Below, piece by piece: positions 59,414 to 64,000 of a DNA stretch of 64,000 bases (within the stretch, counting starts at the first letter, position 1; each line of letters begins with the position of its first letter). The notes under the pieces are model-generated. The model had not been told where the DNA came from. It saw nothing but the letters and a program-made list of their open reading frames with translations, and did not search any database. The stretch covers positions 12,527 to 76,526 of the forward strand of contig SVBF01000011.1 in NCBI GenBank assembly GCA_015058945.1, given 5' to 3'. The position numbers and the translations under genes were made by a program. The DNA is from Erysipelotrichaceae bacterium. Lineage in GTDB: Bacteria > Bacillota_I > Bacilli_A > RFN20 > CAG-826.

Positions 59414-59441
59414 ATTATAGGGAGGTCGTTAGCACTGTCAA
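59414..59441 (-). promoter_or_regulatory. Sigma-A promoter of the hrcA operon
   Basis: The minus strand reads TTGACA-N16-TATAAT, with both hexamers at consensus. Confidence 0.8.
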
Positions 59442-59455
59442 GCGTTTGCTGCTAA
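59429..59455. promoter_or_regulatory. CIRCE operator 2 (overlaps the -35 box)
   Basis: The minus strand reads TTAGCAGCA-N9-CAGTGCTAA. The right arm matches 8 of 9 positions and the left arm 6 of 9. Confidence 0.6.
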
Positions 59456-59483
59456 AAACCTTAATATTTGTGCGCGCGCATAT

Positions 59484-59510
59484 GAAAAGCCGCGATTCCC
59501 GTCGCGGCTC
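59484..59510 (-). terminator. Rho-independent terminator after the serpin gene
   Basis: The minus strand reads GCCGCGA-CGGGAA-TCGCGGC followed by TTTTC. Confidence 0.7.
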
Positions 59511-59564
59511 TCCATTGGTTTAAATTGCGATATCACATCGCGCTTTTCGCGTTGTTGGACGCCT

Positions 59565-60947
59565 TTAGACGCGATTGACGCTGCCGAGGAATAACGGCGT
59601 CTCGAATTCGTCGATCAGGGCAAAATGGAACGGGCGGTCGCAAACGATACTGAGCCGTTGGACCGGCGCGGCGGCACCGGGACCGACGGCGACGTTGGTG
59701 TAGGCGGCGGCTTCGATTCCTTTTTCGTTCACGTCGAATTTGGCCTGATGCGTCGCGGCGGAGATATAGGTGGTGAAAGGTAGGTCCGGGAAAGCGTAGG
59801 AGAAATCCCCTTCCGCGATCGAGACCGATTTCTTCAGGATCCCCGCTTTCTGGAAAAGGTCGACCAAATCGAAGCGCCCCTCCGCGGTATATTTGGGGAA
59901 GCGCACCTTTAGATCGTATCCCTTCCGCTGCCCGATCTTTGCTTCGGGGAAAAGCAATGCCTCGTAATAATCCCGCGCCGTCTTTGGTTTGTTCTCGCCC
60001 TCGGGATTATCGACGATGACGCGGTATTTTAGGCCACCTAGTAACGGGACGTCGGAGAGGAGATAATCCTCCGAAACATAGGCCCCGCCTTCGTAGGTGT
60101 GCGTCAAGAAGAGGGTCTTCACATCTCCGGTAGCCGCATGGAAAACATCATCCGCGGTATCGGGGTATTTGCCCCAATTGGCTTTGCAATAGACCGTATT
60201 CACGAGCCAGAGCAAACCATCGAGGTCTTTGAAGTCATCCTTGCGTAAGTTAAAGAGACGGTTGGTCTTTTCGTTGATCCAAGAGGCGAGAAAATCGTGC
60301 ATCTGCTCGGAATCGAGTTTCCCTTGATAGGCGTCTGCGTAATAGGAATCGGTGAGGGTTTTGATGAACGCCGGATTGATGGCGTTTTGATAGTCCTCAT
60401 CGACGAAGAAGGCGTCGGCGAGGCTAAGCTTCGCGCTGTTACCCGAAGGAAATTTGGCGTCGAAATTGGCGTTACGGAAGACATATTCCATCTCCTGCGC
60501 GGGCTCGAAAGTGCCGTCATAACCGAGCATTTCGGCCAATTCTTTTTTGCTCTCCCCCGCGGCGGCTTCATAGGCCATCGAGAAGGCGGAGGCGATGGAA
60601 ACGGGCGAAAAAACGCCGTTTTTGTCCTTATCCTCCGTCAGGGTTCCTAGCGTCGAGGCGAAGGAGCGCAAGGAATCGAGATAGGCATCGCTTGGCCGAT
60701 GGTGGAGGGCGTTATGGGGAGACTTCGGGGCATTTAAGGAACGATAAGGCAAATCGGCCTCGTTCCTCCGGGTGGTAAAAGTGACGGTAAGCGCGACGAT
60801 AAGGGCCGAAGCGAGGACCGCCGAGACCGGGATGATCCACCGCTTCTTATTCGGCCTTGCCGAAATGGTTATCGCTTCTTCGATCGCCTTGGAAGGCTCT
60901 ATCGAAAGCGAATCGAGTTTCTTTCTGAAAAGGGAATGAAACATCAT
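59565..60947 (-). CDS. Membrane-anchored serpin (short cytoplasmic tail + single TM + serpin domain)
   Basis: WIIPVSAVLASALIVALTVTF is the TM helix after about 35 residues. The serpin motifs are GVFSPVSIASAFSMAYEAAAGESKKEL, LVNTVYCKANW, the hinge NEKGIEAAAYT, and CDRPFHFALIDEFETPLFLGSV. The start ATGATG overlaps the sigma gene's TGA. Confidence 0.85.
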   Translation of the reverse strand: MMFHSLFRKKLDSLSIEPSKAIEEAITISARPNKKRWIIPVSAVLASALIVALTVTFTTRRNEADLPYRSLNAPKSPHNALHHRPSDAYLDSLRSFASTLGTLTEDKDKNGVFSPVSIASAFSMAYEAAAGESKKELAEMLGYDGTFEPAQEMEYVFRNANFDAKFPSGNSAKLSLADAFFVDEDYQNAINPAFIKTLTDSYYADAYQGKLDSEQMHDFLASWINEKTNRLFNLRKDDFKDLDGLLWLVNTVYCKANWGKYPDTADDVFHAATGDVKTLFLTHTYEGGAYVSEDYLLSDVPLLGGLKYRVIVDNPEGENKPKTARDYYEALLFPEAKIGQRKGYDLKVRFPKYTAEGRFDLVDLFQKAGILKKSVSIAEGDFSYAFPDLPFTTYISAATHQAKFDVNEKGIEAAAYTNVAVGPGAAAPVQRLSIVCDRPFHFALIDEFETPLFLGSVNRV

Positions 60948-61447
60948 TTTACCTCCAATTTGTGACGCACTTTCTTCTTGATGCGGGCGATCCTTTGACG
61001 GACGGCCACGCCAGAAAGGGCGTATTTTTGGGCGAGTTCGGCGCTCGAACGCTCATAGACGACATAATCCATAAGTAAAGCGAACTCCTCCTCGCTCAGG
61101 AGGGCTTTCAGTTCCTCGACGAACCCGCGCATGGGGTCGAAGCTCGGGACTTCCTCTTCCAAAGAAGAAGGAAGCCGTTTCCTTAAGGCGTCGGCGCATT
61201 TGTTCTCTAAGGTCTTTAATAGGAACGCCCTGATCGAAACGATCTCCGTTTTCTTTGGGTAGGCGAAAAAAGATAGGAACGTCTCCTCCACCGCGTCTTC
61301 CCTCTCTTCCTTGGTCAGCGCGTAATTCGCGGAGACGAAATGAAGGAGTCCGCGATAGGAAAGGTAGATCTGTCCATAGGCGGGCTTGATCTTGGCTTCG
61401 TTATGCGAACCGATTGCGGCGCATAGGATCTTCTCTTCTTTTTTCAT
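60944..61447 (-). CDS. Sigma-70 family (ECF-like) RNA polymerase sigma factor
   Basis: Region 2-like EREDAVEETFLSFF and the region 4 HTH SAELAQKYALSGVAVRQRIARIKKKV. ATG at 61447 follows GGGAGAG. The tracked start 61459 is a GTG. Confidence 0.75.
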   Translation of the reverse strand: MKKEEKILCAAIGSHNEAKIKPAYGQIYLSYRGLLHFVSANYALTKEEREDAVEETFLSFFAYPKKTEIVSIRAFLLKTLENKCADALRKRLPSSLEEEVPSFDPMRGFVEELKALLSEEEFALLMDYVVYERSSAELAQKYALSGVAVRQRIARIKKKVRHKLEVK

Positions 61448-61492
61448 TTGCTCTCCCACTTACTTAGACGGAGAAGAGACGAATTTGTGACA

Positions 61493-62608
61493 TCAATCGT
61501 ATAAATTCAAAAGGACCATGTCGAGGAAGTTCATGCCCTGATGGGTGGTGCGGACATAGCCGTCCACACATTCGAGCATGCCATCCTCGGAAATCTCCTT
61601 GAAGGTCTGCCCATAATCGTCCATGAAGTCCGTCCCAAAGCGGCGATGATACTCCTCTAAGGCAAAGCCTTCCACCAGACGGAGGTTGGTCAGGAAGAAG
61701 ACCTCCTTATGATCCTCGAGGTCGAGTTCCTCGATCTCGCCGTCATAATGGCCTTCGAGGTATTCCTTGAGGCTAAGGGTGTTTTTGTAACGGATATCCC
61801 CTACCGATCCCGCCGCGCCTAAGCCAACGCCAAGATAATCGAGATCTTTCCAATAAGCCTTATTGTGTTCGCATTGATATCCGGGCAAGGAGAAATTGCT
61901 CACCTCATAACGGACATAACCCGCCTTATCCAAAGCGTCCATAATCAATTCAAACATCTCTTGCTGCGTATCATCGTCAAGAGGTTCGACCTTGCGCGAA
62001 GCGAAAGCCGTCCCTTCCTCGAGGATCAAGGAATAGGCGGAAAGATGCGGCACGCCTAAGGACAAGAAGGCATCGATGTCCTTTTGGACCATCTCAAAGG
62101 TCTCTTCGGGATAGCCGTACATCCAATCGACGTTGATGTTCTCGATGCCGGCTTTCCTTAACAAAGAAATCGCGACCTTCGCGTCCTCGAAACTATGCTT
62201 ACGGCCGAGGATCTTTAGTCCTTCCGGCGTGGAGGTTTGCACCCCGATCGAGACGCGGTTCGCGCCATATTTGGCGAATAAGGCGATCTTTTCGGCGGTG
62301 AGCGATTCGGGATTGGCCTCGACGCTGAACTCACATTCGGGTTCCCTTAGGGCGCTTAAAAAAGAAAGCAGATCCTCAAGCTCGGCCAAAGACAAGCAAG
62401 AGGGCGTGCCCCCACCGACGTAAATCGTGCGGTATTTGGTTCCTTTGCCGCGCGAAAGCGCCTCTTCCTTGAGGCGTTTCAGATAGGCTTCGGCCCAGTC
62501 TTCCTTATAAAAGACCTTGGGGAAATCGCAATACGGGCAGATATGGGAACAAAACGGGATATGGACGTAAAGCGAGCCCACCGAATCAGGCTTGCTTGTC
62601 GTCGGCAT
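61493..62608 (-). CDS. hemW: Radical SAM heme chaperone HemW (HemN-like)
   Basis: LYVHIPFCSHICPYCDF (CxxxCxxC) and the GGGTPS-like motif YVGGGTPS. ATG at 62608 is chosen as the start. The tracked start 62644 is a TTG. Confidence 0.9.
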   Translation of the reverse strand: MPTTSKPDSVGSLYVHIPFCSHICPYCDFPKVFYKEDWAEAYLKRLKEEALSRGKGTKYRTIYVGGGTPSCLSLAELEDLLSFLSALREPECEFSVEANPESLTAEKIALFAKYGANRVSIGVQTSTPEGLKILGRKHSFEDAKVAISLLRKAGIENINVDWMYGYPEETFEMVQKDIDAFLSLGVPHLSAYSLILEEGTAFASRKVEPLDDDTQQEMFELIMDALDKAGYVRYEVSNFSLPGYQCEHNKAYWKDLDYLGVGLGAAGSVGDIRYKNTLSLKEYLEGHYDGEIEELDLEDHKEVFFLTNLRLVEGFALEEYHRRFGTDFMDDYGQTFKEISEDGMLECVDGYVRTTHQGMNFLDMVLLNLYD

Positions 62609-62846
62609 CTTTGTTCTCTTCGCCTTCTTCTTTGACCGGCTCAAGTTCCTCGACTGGCTCGAGCAAGCGGTCGAGCTCCTCGGCGGCGATCTCTTTGTCG
62701 GATTTGGGCTTTTCGTCGTTTTTGAAGATCTTCACGTGCTTCTTGAGCAAGATGACGACCACGACGATGACGCCGAAGAAAAGGACGAGGAAAACGGGGA
62801 TGAGAATGGCGGGTAGGTTGTCCGCTAAGACGACGGTTGGGTTCAT
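62586..62846 (-). CDS. Small single-pass membrane protein with acidic C-terminal tail
   Basis: ATG at 62846 lies 5 nt after AAGGAG. The TM helix is LPAILIPVFLVLFFGVIVVVVILL, followed by a Glu/Asp/Lys-rich tail. Its 3' end overlaps the hemW start by 23 nt. Confidence 0.55.
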   Translation of the reverse strand: MNPTVVLADNLPAILIPVFLVLFFGVIVVVVILLKKHVKIFKNDEKPKSDKEIAAEELDRLLEPVEELEPVKEEGEENKDADDKQA

Positions 62847-62848
62847 GG

Positions 62849-64000
62849 TCACTCCTTCTCTCCGGCTTTGCGGAGGGTATATACGTATTTGTTCTTGATG
62901 CGAAGCTTGGTGTAGAGCTTGGCGATGGCGAGGCGGTCCATCGAAGTGCGCGCCGTCTCATAGGCGACCTTCATGGTGCGTTTGTAGTCTTGGATCGTGT
63001 AATAACGCCCGGCGGTGCAATGGCTCGCGAAGAAGAGGGCTTGCTGCTTATTGATGTCGGGATGGGTCTCCACGATGTATCTGGCGGCCATCTTGACCTC
63101 TTTGTCGCTAAGCGACACGCGCGGGGCGAACATGTTGCGCGCCCCTTCCGGGAAGGCCTCGAGGACGGGCACATCCTCCATCGGGGCTTTCTTCTTCGGC
63201 TCGTCTGCGTCCTTGGTCTCTTGGATCACCGTGGCTTCTTGCCGCGGCTGTACGGGCACTTCCGTCAAGGGTTTCTCCCTTTCTTTGACCTCCACGGTCG
63301 CGATAGGTTCCGGTTCCTTGGATTCTACGGGTTGAGGCTCGATGGCTTCGGGCACTTCCTCTTCGTGGGGTGCGCCGCGGAACTCGCGCCGCAAGGCGTC
63401 CGTATGGATCTTGGTGAGTTCGTCGCGCAGGGTTTCAAGCGCATTGCCCACCAAATCGATCATGGAGAGGAAGGCATAGGTGAAGTCGCCCGTCTTGGAG
63501 GTTTCGAGGAAGAGCGAGGCGGCTTTGTTGTCCTTAAGGAGCGCCTTCTCTAACGGTAAGAGATAGGCGAAGTCGCCTAAGGAGGTGCGGCTAAGCATTT
63601 TCTTGCATAAGGCGACCGCCATTAAGGGATTATGCCCGGCGAAAGGCTCGACGTAATCGACGAAATACATGGCGAGGAACGCCTTCGGGAAAGCGGAAAG
63701 CGGATCGGAGAAGACGAATTCCTCGAGGTTATCCACCAAAGATTCGATATCCCCAAAACGCGCATATTCCCCCGCGCGCCCCTGACCGACGGTCGCGTCG
63801 TTGACGCGGTAAAAGGACACGAGTTCCTCGGTGCCGGAGATGGCACTATAAACATCGGCGAAGAACGTGGAGCAATCCTTGAAGTTCTTCCCGACTTTGA
63901 GGGTCAGCAAATCGCGGTAACCGGCGATGACGGTCTGTTCCGGGCCGCCGCCGCGATAAAGGTCGGTGAGCATCGCCCGCAAGGTCGGTTCGGAGAGTTT
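62849..64000 (-). CDS. Fic-like protein with degenerate active-site motif, low-complexity linker and C-terminal wHTH-like domain (5' end outside window)
   Basis: The frame is open to the window edge. YFVDYVEPFAGHNPLMAVALCKKML lies where Fic proteins carry HPFxxGNGRxxR. A Pro/Glu-rich linker (EEEVPEAIEPQPVESKEPEPI...) is followed by a C-terminal ...YETARTSMDRLAIAKLYTKLRIKNKYVYTL. Confidence 0.45.
   Translation of the reverse strand, partial: KLSEPTLRAMLTDLYRGGGPEQTVIAGYRDLLTLKVGKNFKDCSTFFADVYSAISGTEELVSFYRVNDATVGQGRAGEYARFGDIESLVDNLEEFVFSDPLSAFPKAFLAMYFVDYVEPFAGHNPLMAVALCKKMLSRTSLGDFAYLLPLEKALLKDNKAASLFLETSKTGDFTYAFLSMIDLVGNALETLRDELTKIHTDALRREFRGAPHEEEVPEAIEPQPVESKEPEPIATVEVKEREKPLTEVPVQPRQEATVIQETKDADEPKKKAPMEDVPVLEAFPEGARNMFAPRVSLSDKEVKMAARYIVETHPDINKQQALFFASHCTAGRYYTIQDYKRTMKVAYETARTSMDRLAIAKLYTKLRIKNKYVYTLRKAGEKE

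Follow-up and report, generated by a model that had tools for sequence, protein, structure and literature searches.

A candidate ECF sigma/anti-sigma pair with a serpin ectodomain in gut and rumen Bacillota

Introduction

Bacteria sense the cell exterior mainly through pairs of extracytoplasmic function (ECF) sigma factors and anti-sigma factors, and for most of these pairs the signal is not known. In the RsgI/SigI systems of Clostridium thermocellum, an N-terminal sigma-binding module is followed by one transmembrane (TM) helix and, outside the cell, by a domain that can be exchanged (CBM, PA14 or GH), and CnrY, the partner of CnrH, is an example of a short anti-sigma factor. RsiV binds lysozyme, against which the SigV regulon protects the cell, and once lysozyme is bound, site-1 cleavage and regulated intramembrane proteolysis can proceed (PMC4183432, PMC5014341, PMC6066255). 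Here, we describe a two-gene locus in a 64,000-nucleotide stretch of an Erysipelotrichaceae bacterium genome (GenBank assembly GCA_015058945.1, contig SVBF01000011.1; hereafter the window), in which the gene for an ECF-type sigma factor is followed by a gene for a membrane-anchored serpin, and we argue with moderate confidence that the serpin protein acts as the anti-sigma factor.

By analogy, RsiV is the closest mechanistic precedent for this locus. The SigV/RsiV pairs of B. subtilis, Enterococcus and C. difficile likewise consist of a co-transcribed, autoregulated ECF sigma factor and a type II membrane anti-sigma factor whose ectodomain binds a hostile enzyme, and we propose the same logic here, except that proteases take the place of lysozyme. 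However, the RsiV ectodomain is not a serpin, it binds its target non-covalently and the cytoplasmic domain is longer, whereas the present locus would have as its sensor a suicide inhibitor whose conformational change is irreversible and which also appears to be what the circuit produces; similarity of the serpin protein to RsiV was not detected in Pfam and NCBIfam scans. Class II short anti-sigma factors (CnrY with CnrH) and NepR-type peptides have very short, two-helix cytoplasmic sigma-binding segments, and the tail of the serpin protein is predicted to form two short amphipathic helices, however, there is no detectable homology between them, and CnrY has a short periplasmic part and works together with CnrX. 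RsgI offers a precedent for swapping the outer domain on a Bacillota anti-sigma factor, but RsgI_N was not found here in Pfam searches, SigI is not of the ECF type, and the RsgI ligands are polysaccharides, not proteases. The system would work like an RsiV-type single-pass ECF anti-sigma switch, and it appears to lie outside any described anti-sigma family.

Characterised serpins from gut and thermophilic bacteria, i.e., B. longum BL0108, siropins, tengpin and miropin, have the same fold as the serpin of the window, but none has been described as sigma-coupled or as carrying a cytoplasmic tail, and the serpins of C. thermocellum are dockerin-borne components of the cellulosome rather than anti-sigma factors. 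Bifidobacterial serpin expression is reported to be under the control of a two-component system (Alvarez-Martin 2012, as cited in PMC8201313), in contrast to the sigma/anti-sigma solution proposed here. A paper on serpin phylogeny notes only 'membrane anchored (prokaryotic serpins only)' (PMC8233489), and the papers on siropins, the gut serpinome and BMG-1 mention neither sigma factors nor transmembrane tails. Full-text searches returned no paper linking serpins to sigma factors, an absence that is not proof, and this agrees with the view taken in the initial annotation of the window that no anti-sigma factor with a serpin ectodomain has been characterised.

Organization of the locus

Both open reading frames (ORFs) are present where the initial annotation had placed them, at 60944-61447 (sigma factor) and 59565-60947 (serpin), and the gene order on the minus strand is hemW (61493-62644), sigma ORF, serpin ORF and hrcA-grpE-dnaK-dnaJ. 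The flanking genes, which had led to the suggestion of an insertion in a conserved locus, match HemW and HrcA at equivalog level (TIGR00539, 294 bits, and TIGR00331, 300 bits), and the same backbone surrounds the copy in a 96%-identical relative (L007). The pair is a two-gene insertion between hemW and hrcA. Its GC content of 52–54% is not distinct from that of the neighbouring genes, and there is therefore no compositional sign of recent transfer.

The sequence confirms the proposed overlap of the sigma TGA with the ATGATG start of the serpin gene. The resulting ATGA stop/start junction (60944..60947, minus strand) points to translational coupling, and relatives have either an overlap or a gap of 0–4 nt at this position. 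Because the relatives begin with 'MF', the second ATG may be the true start of the serpin.

The sigma factor

The product of the first gene (60944..61447, minus strand) is assigned by Pfam/NCBIfam matches, an AlphaFold2 (AF2) model and Foldseek as an ECF-type sigma factor of 167 residues with sigma2 and sigma4 domains only. An alternative GTG at 61459 would lengthen it by 4 codons, however, the ribosome-binding site GGGAG 5 nt upstream of ATG 61447 and the homologues favour the latter as the start. The regions 2 and 4 recognised at the outset hold to different degrees by profile: Sigma70_r2 scores 28.4 bits, above the gathering cutoff of 24, and region 4 lies just below its cutoff. As region 4 and TIGR02937 both fall slightly short, sequence evidence by itself is borderline, and structure was used as a check. 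The AF2 model (pLDDT 88, pTM 0.81) consists of two helical bundles with a disordered linker between them (about residues 91–104), and all of its top neighbours in the Protein Data Bank (PDB) are ECF sigma factors that align over their full length (~160–178 columns; Foldseek). The top matches are M. tuberculosis SigE, SigL and SigH, AlgU, CnrH, E. coli sigmaE, SigK and SigW; by sequence, CnrH is also the best PDB match (E = 0.015), and of the top structural matches it is the one with the highest TM-score. Many of the closest ECF structures were solved together with their anti-sigma factors. Taken together with the fold search, the evidence for a sigma factor is significant, and on the basis of the model the protein is a divergent ECF-type sigma factor with the two-domain architecture.

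Conservation of the sigma–serpin pair

Linkage of the two genes in related genomes had been set as the main test of the proposal, and the two genes are linked in every readable relative as well as in another two classes of tail. Searching 5.8 billion proteins with a profile of the sigma family returned nine clusters of one tight clade and one weak outlier. For eight of the nine clusters, a count that leaves out P0031, downstream DNA was read, and the sigma gene is followed by a serpin with a cytoplasmic tail of the same motif (MF+xxFxxxLN) and a TM helix, with an overlap or a gap of 0–4 nt. The pair spans at least six lineages, with sigma identities of 37–59% and serpin identities of 32–47%, and at least four genomic contexts (hemW/hrcA, BioY, a two-component system, and rSAM/SPASM). 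The order hemW-sigma-serpin-hrcA is also found in the relatives at 96% and 91% identity. In P0025, a 43%-identical sigma factor is followed by a TM-serpin with an overlapping start, and BioY and DUF4143 genes lie upstream instead of hemW. The loci of P0003 and P0004 begin at contig ends; the 82 nt that precede the 38%-identical serpin of P0003 encode RGLKPDAVRQRVKRIKAKVRSIMEV up to the stop codon, i.e., the C-terminal end of a member of the same sigma family. Scanning a single genome from each GTDB species identified 13 related serpin loci, mostly in rumen or gut metagenome-assembled genomes (MAGs) labelled 'Bacilli bacterium' or Erysipelotrichaceae, and a metagenome scan with sigma patterns added two confirmed loci, both from a lineage already seen. 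For members of the family, no public name other than 'hypothetical protein [Bacilli bacterium]' was found.

The sigma gene lies directly upstream of every serpin gene whose product has MF[RK]xxFxxxLN at its start and then a basic stretch and a hydrophobic helix. The lipoprotein-type sister serpins (L013-L020; starts …LLILTSC and …LMVFSAC) have no cytoplasmic tail, and an ECF-like ORF was not found in up to 5 kb of their flanks by a hidden Markov model (HMM) search that was sensitive enough to detect the distant sigma factors of L030 and L031. Thus, the sigma factor is obligately coupled to the tail-bearing serpin.

Two loci differ in detail. In the 91%-identical relative (L008:3412-3942) the sigma stop is displaced, the ORF running 32 nt into the serpin gene and gaining a C-terminal extension of 9–10 residues. 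In a rumen MAG (L011:2288-4347), genes for a LytTR-type response regulator and a membrane histidine-kinase-like protein are located directly upstream of the pair, and these are absent from the near-identical L009, L010, L022 and L029.

The architecture extends beyond the immediate relatives. An exhaustive HMMER search identified 27,645 serpins among 1.84 billion cluster representatives, and about 56 of the 150 serpin clusters closest to that of the window have a tail of 28–68 residues (median 35) plus a TM helix, so that the window serpin is not a one-off; 32 are lipoprotein-like and 25 have short signals. Besides the tail of the window ('class A'), a 'class B' tail (MKxEKLxxALxxISDxHIxEAAxxKKK…) is common, and other classes exist. 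In the class B locus P0089 (L030), the order is TM-serpin, ECF sigma, TM-serpin with an 11-nt overlap, and in the class D locus P0102 (L031) an ECF sigma gene is separated by 2 nt from a TM-serpin gene. The class B and D sigma factors score above all curated cutoffs and are distant from that of the window (24 and 42 bits against the HMM of its clade); different tails therefore go with different sigma clades, the serpin domains remaining similar. In P0072 (L032:1485-1670), where an intact sigma gene is absent, a 37-residue ORF ending in WKEIREETGIPESTSKLLYNRAKEKLRKELL and a stop lies in the 183-nt spacer. It is similar to sigma region 4.2 (r4_2, E = 0.007), it overlaps the TM-serpin start in an ATGA junction, and by its sequence it appears to be a decayed sigma gene.

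Promoter and operon boundaries

A putative operon promoter, TGTCAC (–35), 16 nt, CGTCTA (–10), is located directly after the hemW stop (61465..61492, minus strand). It emerged from an alignment of the 200-nt stretches that precede the sigma start codons: flanks with no other resemblance share the motif TGT(C/A/T)AC, 16–17 nt, CGTCT(A/T), located about 20 nt ahead of the start. Scanning with TGT[CAT]AC-N17/18-GTCT[AT] returned it once per sigma-bearing locus and always ~20 nt upstream, with a one-base variant in L007. Within the ~250 kb examined, there were no further copies in the 64-kb window (0.09 expected) and none in sigma-less serpin loci. This exclusivity and the fixed position are the independent part of the promoter evidence. 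The motif resembles Bacillus ECF promoters, e.g., TGTAAC-N17-CGAC for sigmaX and …AAC-N16/17-CGTC for sigmaM/V, and also the sigmaW promoters of B. subtilis. The resemblance implies that the operon is positively autoregulated by its own sigma factor, as predicted from the promoter sequence.

A terminator-like hairpin (59482..59515, minus strand) with a 14-bp stem, a GC-rich core (GCCGCGA/UCGCGGC) and a following U-rich tract was located by RNA folding 50 nt past the serpin stop. It is present in both the minimum free energy and the centroid structures of 59470-59570(–), with z = –2.7, and was not flagged by a simple terminator scan. Further downstream, a pattern scan identified a sigmaA-type hrcA promoter, TTGACA-16-TATAAT (12/12 matches; 59414..59455, minus strand), which overlaps a CIRCE-like inverted repeat, TTAGCAGCA-N9-CAGTGCTAA, a pattern that is unique in the window with none expected by chance. 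With this promoter of its own the heat-shock operon is a separate unit, and the hairpin and the hrcA promoter together delimit a self-contained bicistronic operon with no room for another anti-sigma gene.

Upstream of the class D sigma gene (L031:560-644), there is a candidate promoter, TGAAAA-N16-GTCTAT, that has the GTCTA –10 element of class A and a different –35 element.

Cytoplasmic tail and membrane topology

The organization described initially for the serpin protein, a tail, one hydrophobic helix and a complete serpin, is confirmed, with a 36-residue tail, a helix at residues 37–57 and a Pfam Serpin domain. The tail (60840..60947, minus strand) is proposed as the sigma-binding module on the basis of its conserved motif and helices in the AF2 model. 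It is hydrophilic and has the basic end NKKR, it is predicted to form two short helices (residues 3–13 and 18–26), and it carries amphipathic stripes at i/i+4 spacing (F3-F7-L11 and I22-I26). Its motif, MF+xxFxxxLNxKxxxxFxSIxxxI, is kept across at least six lineages.

Hydropathy and charge pattern identify the following segment (WIIPVSAVLASALIVALTVTF; 60777..60839, minus strand) as a single TM helix and a probable type II (N-in) signal anchor, with a Kyte–Doolittle maximum of 2.45 over 19 residues. In the ~56 homologous architectures, 3–8 Lys/Arg are present within the 15 residues preceding the helix and 0–3 after it, and the 91%-identical P0002 has four in this preceding stretch. This positive-inside pattern argues for an N-in, serpin-out orientation, and the two heuristics together indicate a single-pass N-in/C-out topology.

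An ordinary secreted serpin, with a hydrophobic segment that is cleaved off as a signal peptide and a sigma gene that is adjacent only incidentally or through a gene-calling artefact, would be in keeping with the N-terminal export signals of most prokaryotic serpins (PMC8233489). However, the putative n-region has 36 residues and a conserved motif, compared with a few residues in typical Sec signals, and the h-region has 21 residues. No in-frame ATG, GTG or TTG is present between codons 2 and 66 of the serpin gene, and the tail can therefore not be bypassed to give a normal signal peptide. Adjacency is furthermore kept in every lineage, it recurs with independent tail classes, and a conserved promoter precedes the pair; hence we regard mere secretion as highly improbable. 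Cleavage had been named as the point on which the anchor assignment would turn: with a conserved, basic-ended tail of 28–68 residues, a helix of ~21 residues and no alternative start the segment is not signal-like, and both the cleaved signal peptide and the gene-call artefact were rejected on tail length, tail conservation and the missing start.

Serpin fold and reactive-centre loop

Residues 58–86 (60690..60776, minus strand), identified from the AF2 model, DSSP and conservation, form a juxtamembrane segment with the motif YRSLNAPKxPxN. In the AF2 model, residues 61–90 have pLDDT values of 78–95 and residues 68–72 (YRSLN) are a β-strand (DSSP), and an LNxPxK motif is common to the TM-type and the lipoprotein-type sister serpins across the clade. 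The strand may dock on the serpin body, and the anchor may therefore not join the serpin by a purely floppy linker. In tengpin, an N-terminal extension traps the metastable native state (PMC1905895), and the juxtamembrane strand may be a parallel to this clamp.

The extracytoplasmic domain (residues 87–460; 59568..60689, minus strand) has the complete serpin fold proposed for it. Pfam Serpin (PF00079) matches residues 103–458 with E = 2.2e-40 and 139.5 bits (cutoff 27), over profile positions 13–368 of 370, and full-length PDB sequence matches include conserpin, tengpin, antithrombin and α1-antitrypsin. The AF2 model (pLDDT 86, pTM 0.83) retrieves 415 PDB serpin chains at E<1e-3 with Foldseek, and the TM-score (target-normalised) to native tengpin is 0.80.

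The hinge and reactive-centre loop (RCL; residues 408–428, 59664..59726, minus strand) were assigned by alignment with conserpin and the canonical 17-residue count from the hinge. The assignment reads E408(P17)-K-G(P15)-I(P14)-E-A-A-A-Y-T(P8)-N-V-A-V-G-P-G424(P1), followed by A-A-A-P, so that P1 is inferred by counting to be Gly424. The segment EKGIEAAAYT, singled out early as an inhibitory-looking hinge, indeed occupies residues 408–417 and agrees with the P17–P8 consensus (E-[EKR]-G-[TS]-E-A-[AGS]x3-T) except for Ile at P14 and Tyr at P9; the inward-facing P14, P12, P10 and P8 were counted as small residues. Residues 416–426 have pLDDT values below 50 and are, as modelled, an exposed flexible RCL. 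Across lineages, the hinge GIEAAAYT is conserved and P7–P4′ vary, as is expected of inhibitory serpins with different targets, and for the window serpin the Ala/Val/Gly/Pro-rich loop makes an elastase-type specificity plausible.

These features bear on the possibility that the anti-sigma factor carries a non-inhibitory ectodomain of serpin fold, acting as a pure protease bait (i.e., a substrate) or as a ligand-binding module. Non-inhibitory serpins are known, e.g., CBG and TBG, and the Ile at P14 and the Tyr at P9 instead of the usual Thr/Ser and Ala, the unusual Gly counted as P1, and an RCL about four residues longer than that of conserpin would all be compatible with such a role. The hinge nevertheless keeps Gly at P15 and small inward-facing residues at P12, P10 and P8, it is conserved across lineages while the distal RCL varies, and the closest solved relatives are inhibitory. 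Related gut Bacillota serpins have been reported as inhibitors of elastase and proteinase 3 (PMC5127057). A non-inhibitory ectodomain is therefore quite improbable, and the window serpin probably shares the inhibitory mechanism of characterised bacterial serpins.

The serpin protein as anti-sigma factor

The initial annotation had left open whether the pair is a protease-sensing sigma/anti-sigma switch or a surface-tethered inhibitor under sigma control. The comparative evidence, i.e., the pairing, the co-occurrence of tail and sigma factor, the promoter, the topology and the operon content, supports the former, and we consider it moderately probable that the locus encodes an autoregulated ECF sigma factor whose anti-sigma factor is a type II membrane protein with an inhibitory-type serpin ectodomain. 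Tail and sigma factor co-occur without exception and the lipoprotein-type sisters have neither, which favours an anti-sigma role over mere sigma-controlled expression of an inhibitor. The conserved ECF-type autoregulatory promoter would need a brake, and the two-gene operon holds no other candidate for it. The arrangement moreover recurs with different tails and sigma clades, and the topology fits.

The main rival is a sigma-driven, membrane-tethered inhibitor without any anti-sigma role, in which the tail and TM helix only anchor or sort the protein and the sigma factor is governed elsewhere, e.g., by transcription, by a two-component system or by an unlinked anti-sigma factor. Some ECF groups have no anti-sigma factors, the tail shows no detectable similarity to known anti-sigma domains, and the LytTR-type two-component system lies directly upstream in one lineage (L011). 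In addition, the sole promoter copy found drives the operon itself, making the serpin at least the main output. However, the two-component neighbour is missing in four near-identical loci, a plain anchor needs no conserved amphipathic cytoplasmic tail of 28–68 residues, and the sister serpins are anchored by a lipobox without any sigma factor. A positively autoregulated sigma factor without an inhibitor would run away, tight stop/start coupling is kept in every lineage, and each of three tail classes is paired with a different ECF sigma clade. This alternative thus leaves the conserved tail and its co-occurrence with the sigma factor unexplained, and we judge it unlikely; the non-inhibitory sensor and the simple secreted serpin are less likely still.

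Several points weigh against the anti-sigma assignment. The support is comparative throughout and is drawn from MAGs of uncultured organisms and from metagenomes, and the class B and class D contexts are represented by one locus each. For the window sigma factor, region 4 (18.1 versus 24.1 bits), r4_2 (14.9 versus 25.7) and TIGR02937 (40.4 versus 42.9) are under their cutoffs. The tail and TM helix are modelled by AF2 at low confidence only; at 36 residues the tail is shorter than class I anti-sigma domains, and synonymous and non-synonymous substitutions among close relatives are too few to show purifying selection on it. No known anti-sigma domain (class I ASD/zf-HC2 or RsgI_N) was found in the class A, B and D tails in Pfam and NCBIfam searches relaxed to E ≤ 10, which gave sub-threshold hints to the CU044_5270 family (E ~0.005) and to an 'anti-sigma factor' model (E 0.12); for this reason we do not file the protein under a known anti-sigma family and claim only that it works like one. 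The loci in which the promoter motif was counted had also served to derive it, and the motif revealed no further regulon members in the window or the fetched flanks. The inhibitory activity of the serpin is a prediction, and it is, like sigma–tail binding, the proteolytic cascade and the nature of the trigger, among the steps that we infer; the coupling of loop insertion to site-1 cleavage is speculative.

A mechanism can be proposed on this basis. At rest, the 36-residue cytoplasmic tail with its two amphipathic helices would hold the sigma factor at the membrane, and the metastable native serpin would face outward with its RCL as bait. An exogenous serine protease, from the host, the diet or a competitor, would attack the loop and be trapped by loop insertion. 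The conformational change and/or the tethered protease would then expose the juxtamembrane segment to site-1 cleavage, after which, as in RsiV, RsiW and RseA, site 2 would be cut within the membrane and the tail degraded. The freed sigma factor would transcribe the TGTCAC-N16-CGTCTA promoter, yielding more sigma factor and more serpin, and as a serpin is consumed one-for-one by its target, inhibitor synthesis would be matched to consumption. We propose this complete consumption-coupled protease-sensing scheme only tentatively. The same reserve applies to a wider reading, in which the serpin would be sensor, anti-sigma factor and effector in one, the S-to-R transition would free the docked juxtamembrane strand and thereby open site 1, and the locus would represent a widespread, unrecognised protease-sensing pathway of gut and rumen Bacillota. 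Such a pathway might include at least three tail classes and sometimes two serpins with different reactive loops per sigma factor, an extension that we hold to be possible and no firmer than the scheme itself. The comparisons suggest that in many Bacillota of gut and rumen, a suicide inhibitor wired to transcription serves to sense proteases that attack the cell.

The sensor domain in this case names the likely signal, a serine protease, and the serpin mechanism is known at atomic level, which makes the hypothesis directly testable. If true, this would be the first metastable suicide inhibitor to serve as a transmembrane signalling device in bacteria, and it would account for the way in which Bacillota of gut and rumen adjust their supply of inhibitor to the protease load from host or competitors. 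It would also provide a regulatory context for bacterial serpins, currently studied as elastase inhibitors of relevance to inflammatory bowel disease, and a compact, modular protease biosensor for synthetic biology, consisting of promoter, sigma factor and a serpin with swappable RCL.

Additional features of the window and related loci

In the rumen 'Bacilli' lineage, the pair is followed by a gene for a very large secreted protein of 1057–1467 residues (L001:2323-6726, L009:6767-9940 and L010:2989-6951), beside which L001 encodes a protein with a Flg_new domain. The ECF promoter motif was not found before the gene for the large protein in these three loci.

The two TM-serpins that flank the single ECF sigma gene of L030 (L030:2077-5506) have nearly identical class B tails and different RCLs (…LPGAGAGMPPEE… and …VDVPANAAPWED…), and they may be two protease sensors feeding one sigma factor. 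Upstream of the sigma remnant in L032, there is a gene for a 493-residue protein without a Pfam match. Tandem multi-serpins of 750–1375 residues with 2–7 serpin-matching stretches were observed in many of the closest serpin representatives, i.e., P0039, P0055, P0067-P0070, P0079, P0083, P0093, P0096, P0106, P0119 and P0161, and P0093 has a highly repetitive N-terminus (…VTVTAVYRYF…).

Compared with the B. subtilis block, two extra genes are located between lepA and hemW, at 62586-63982 (minus strand) and past the window end, and both are kept in L007 and L008. The first encodes a protein of ~499 residues without Pfam or NCBIfam match and is truncated by the window end, and the second encodes a protein of 86–88 residues with a single TM helix and an acidic tail.

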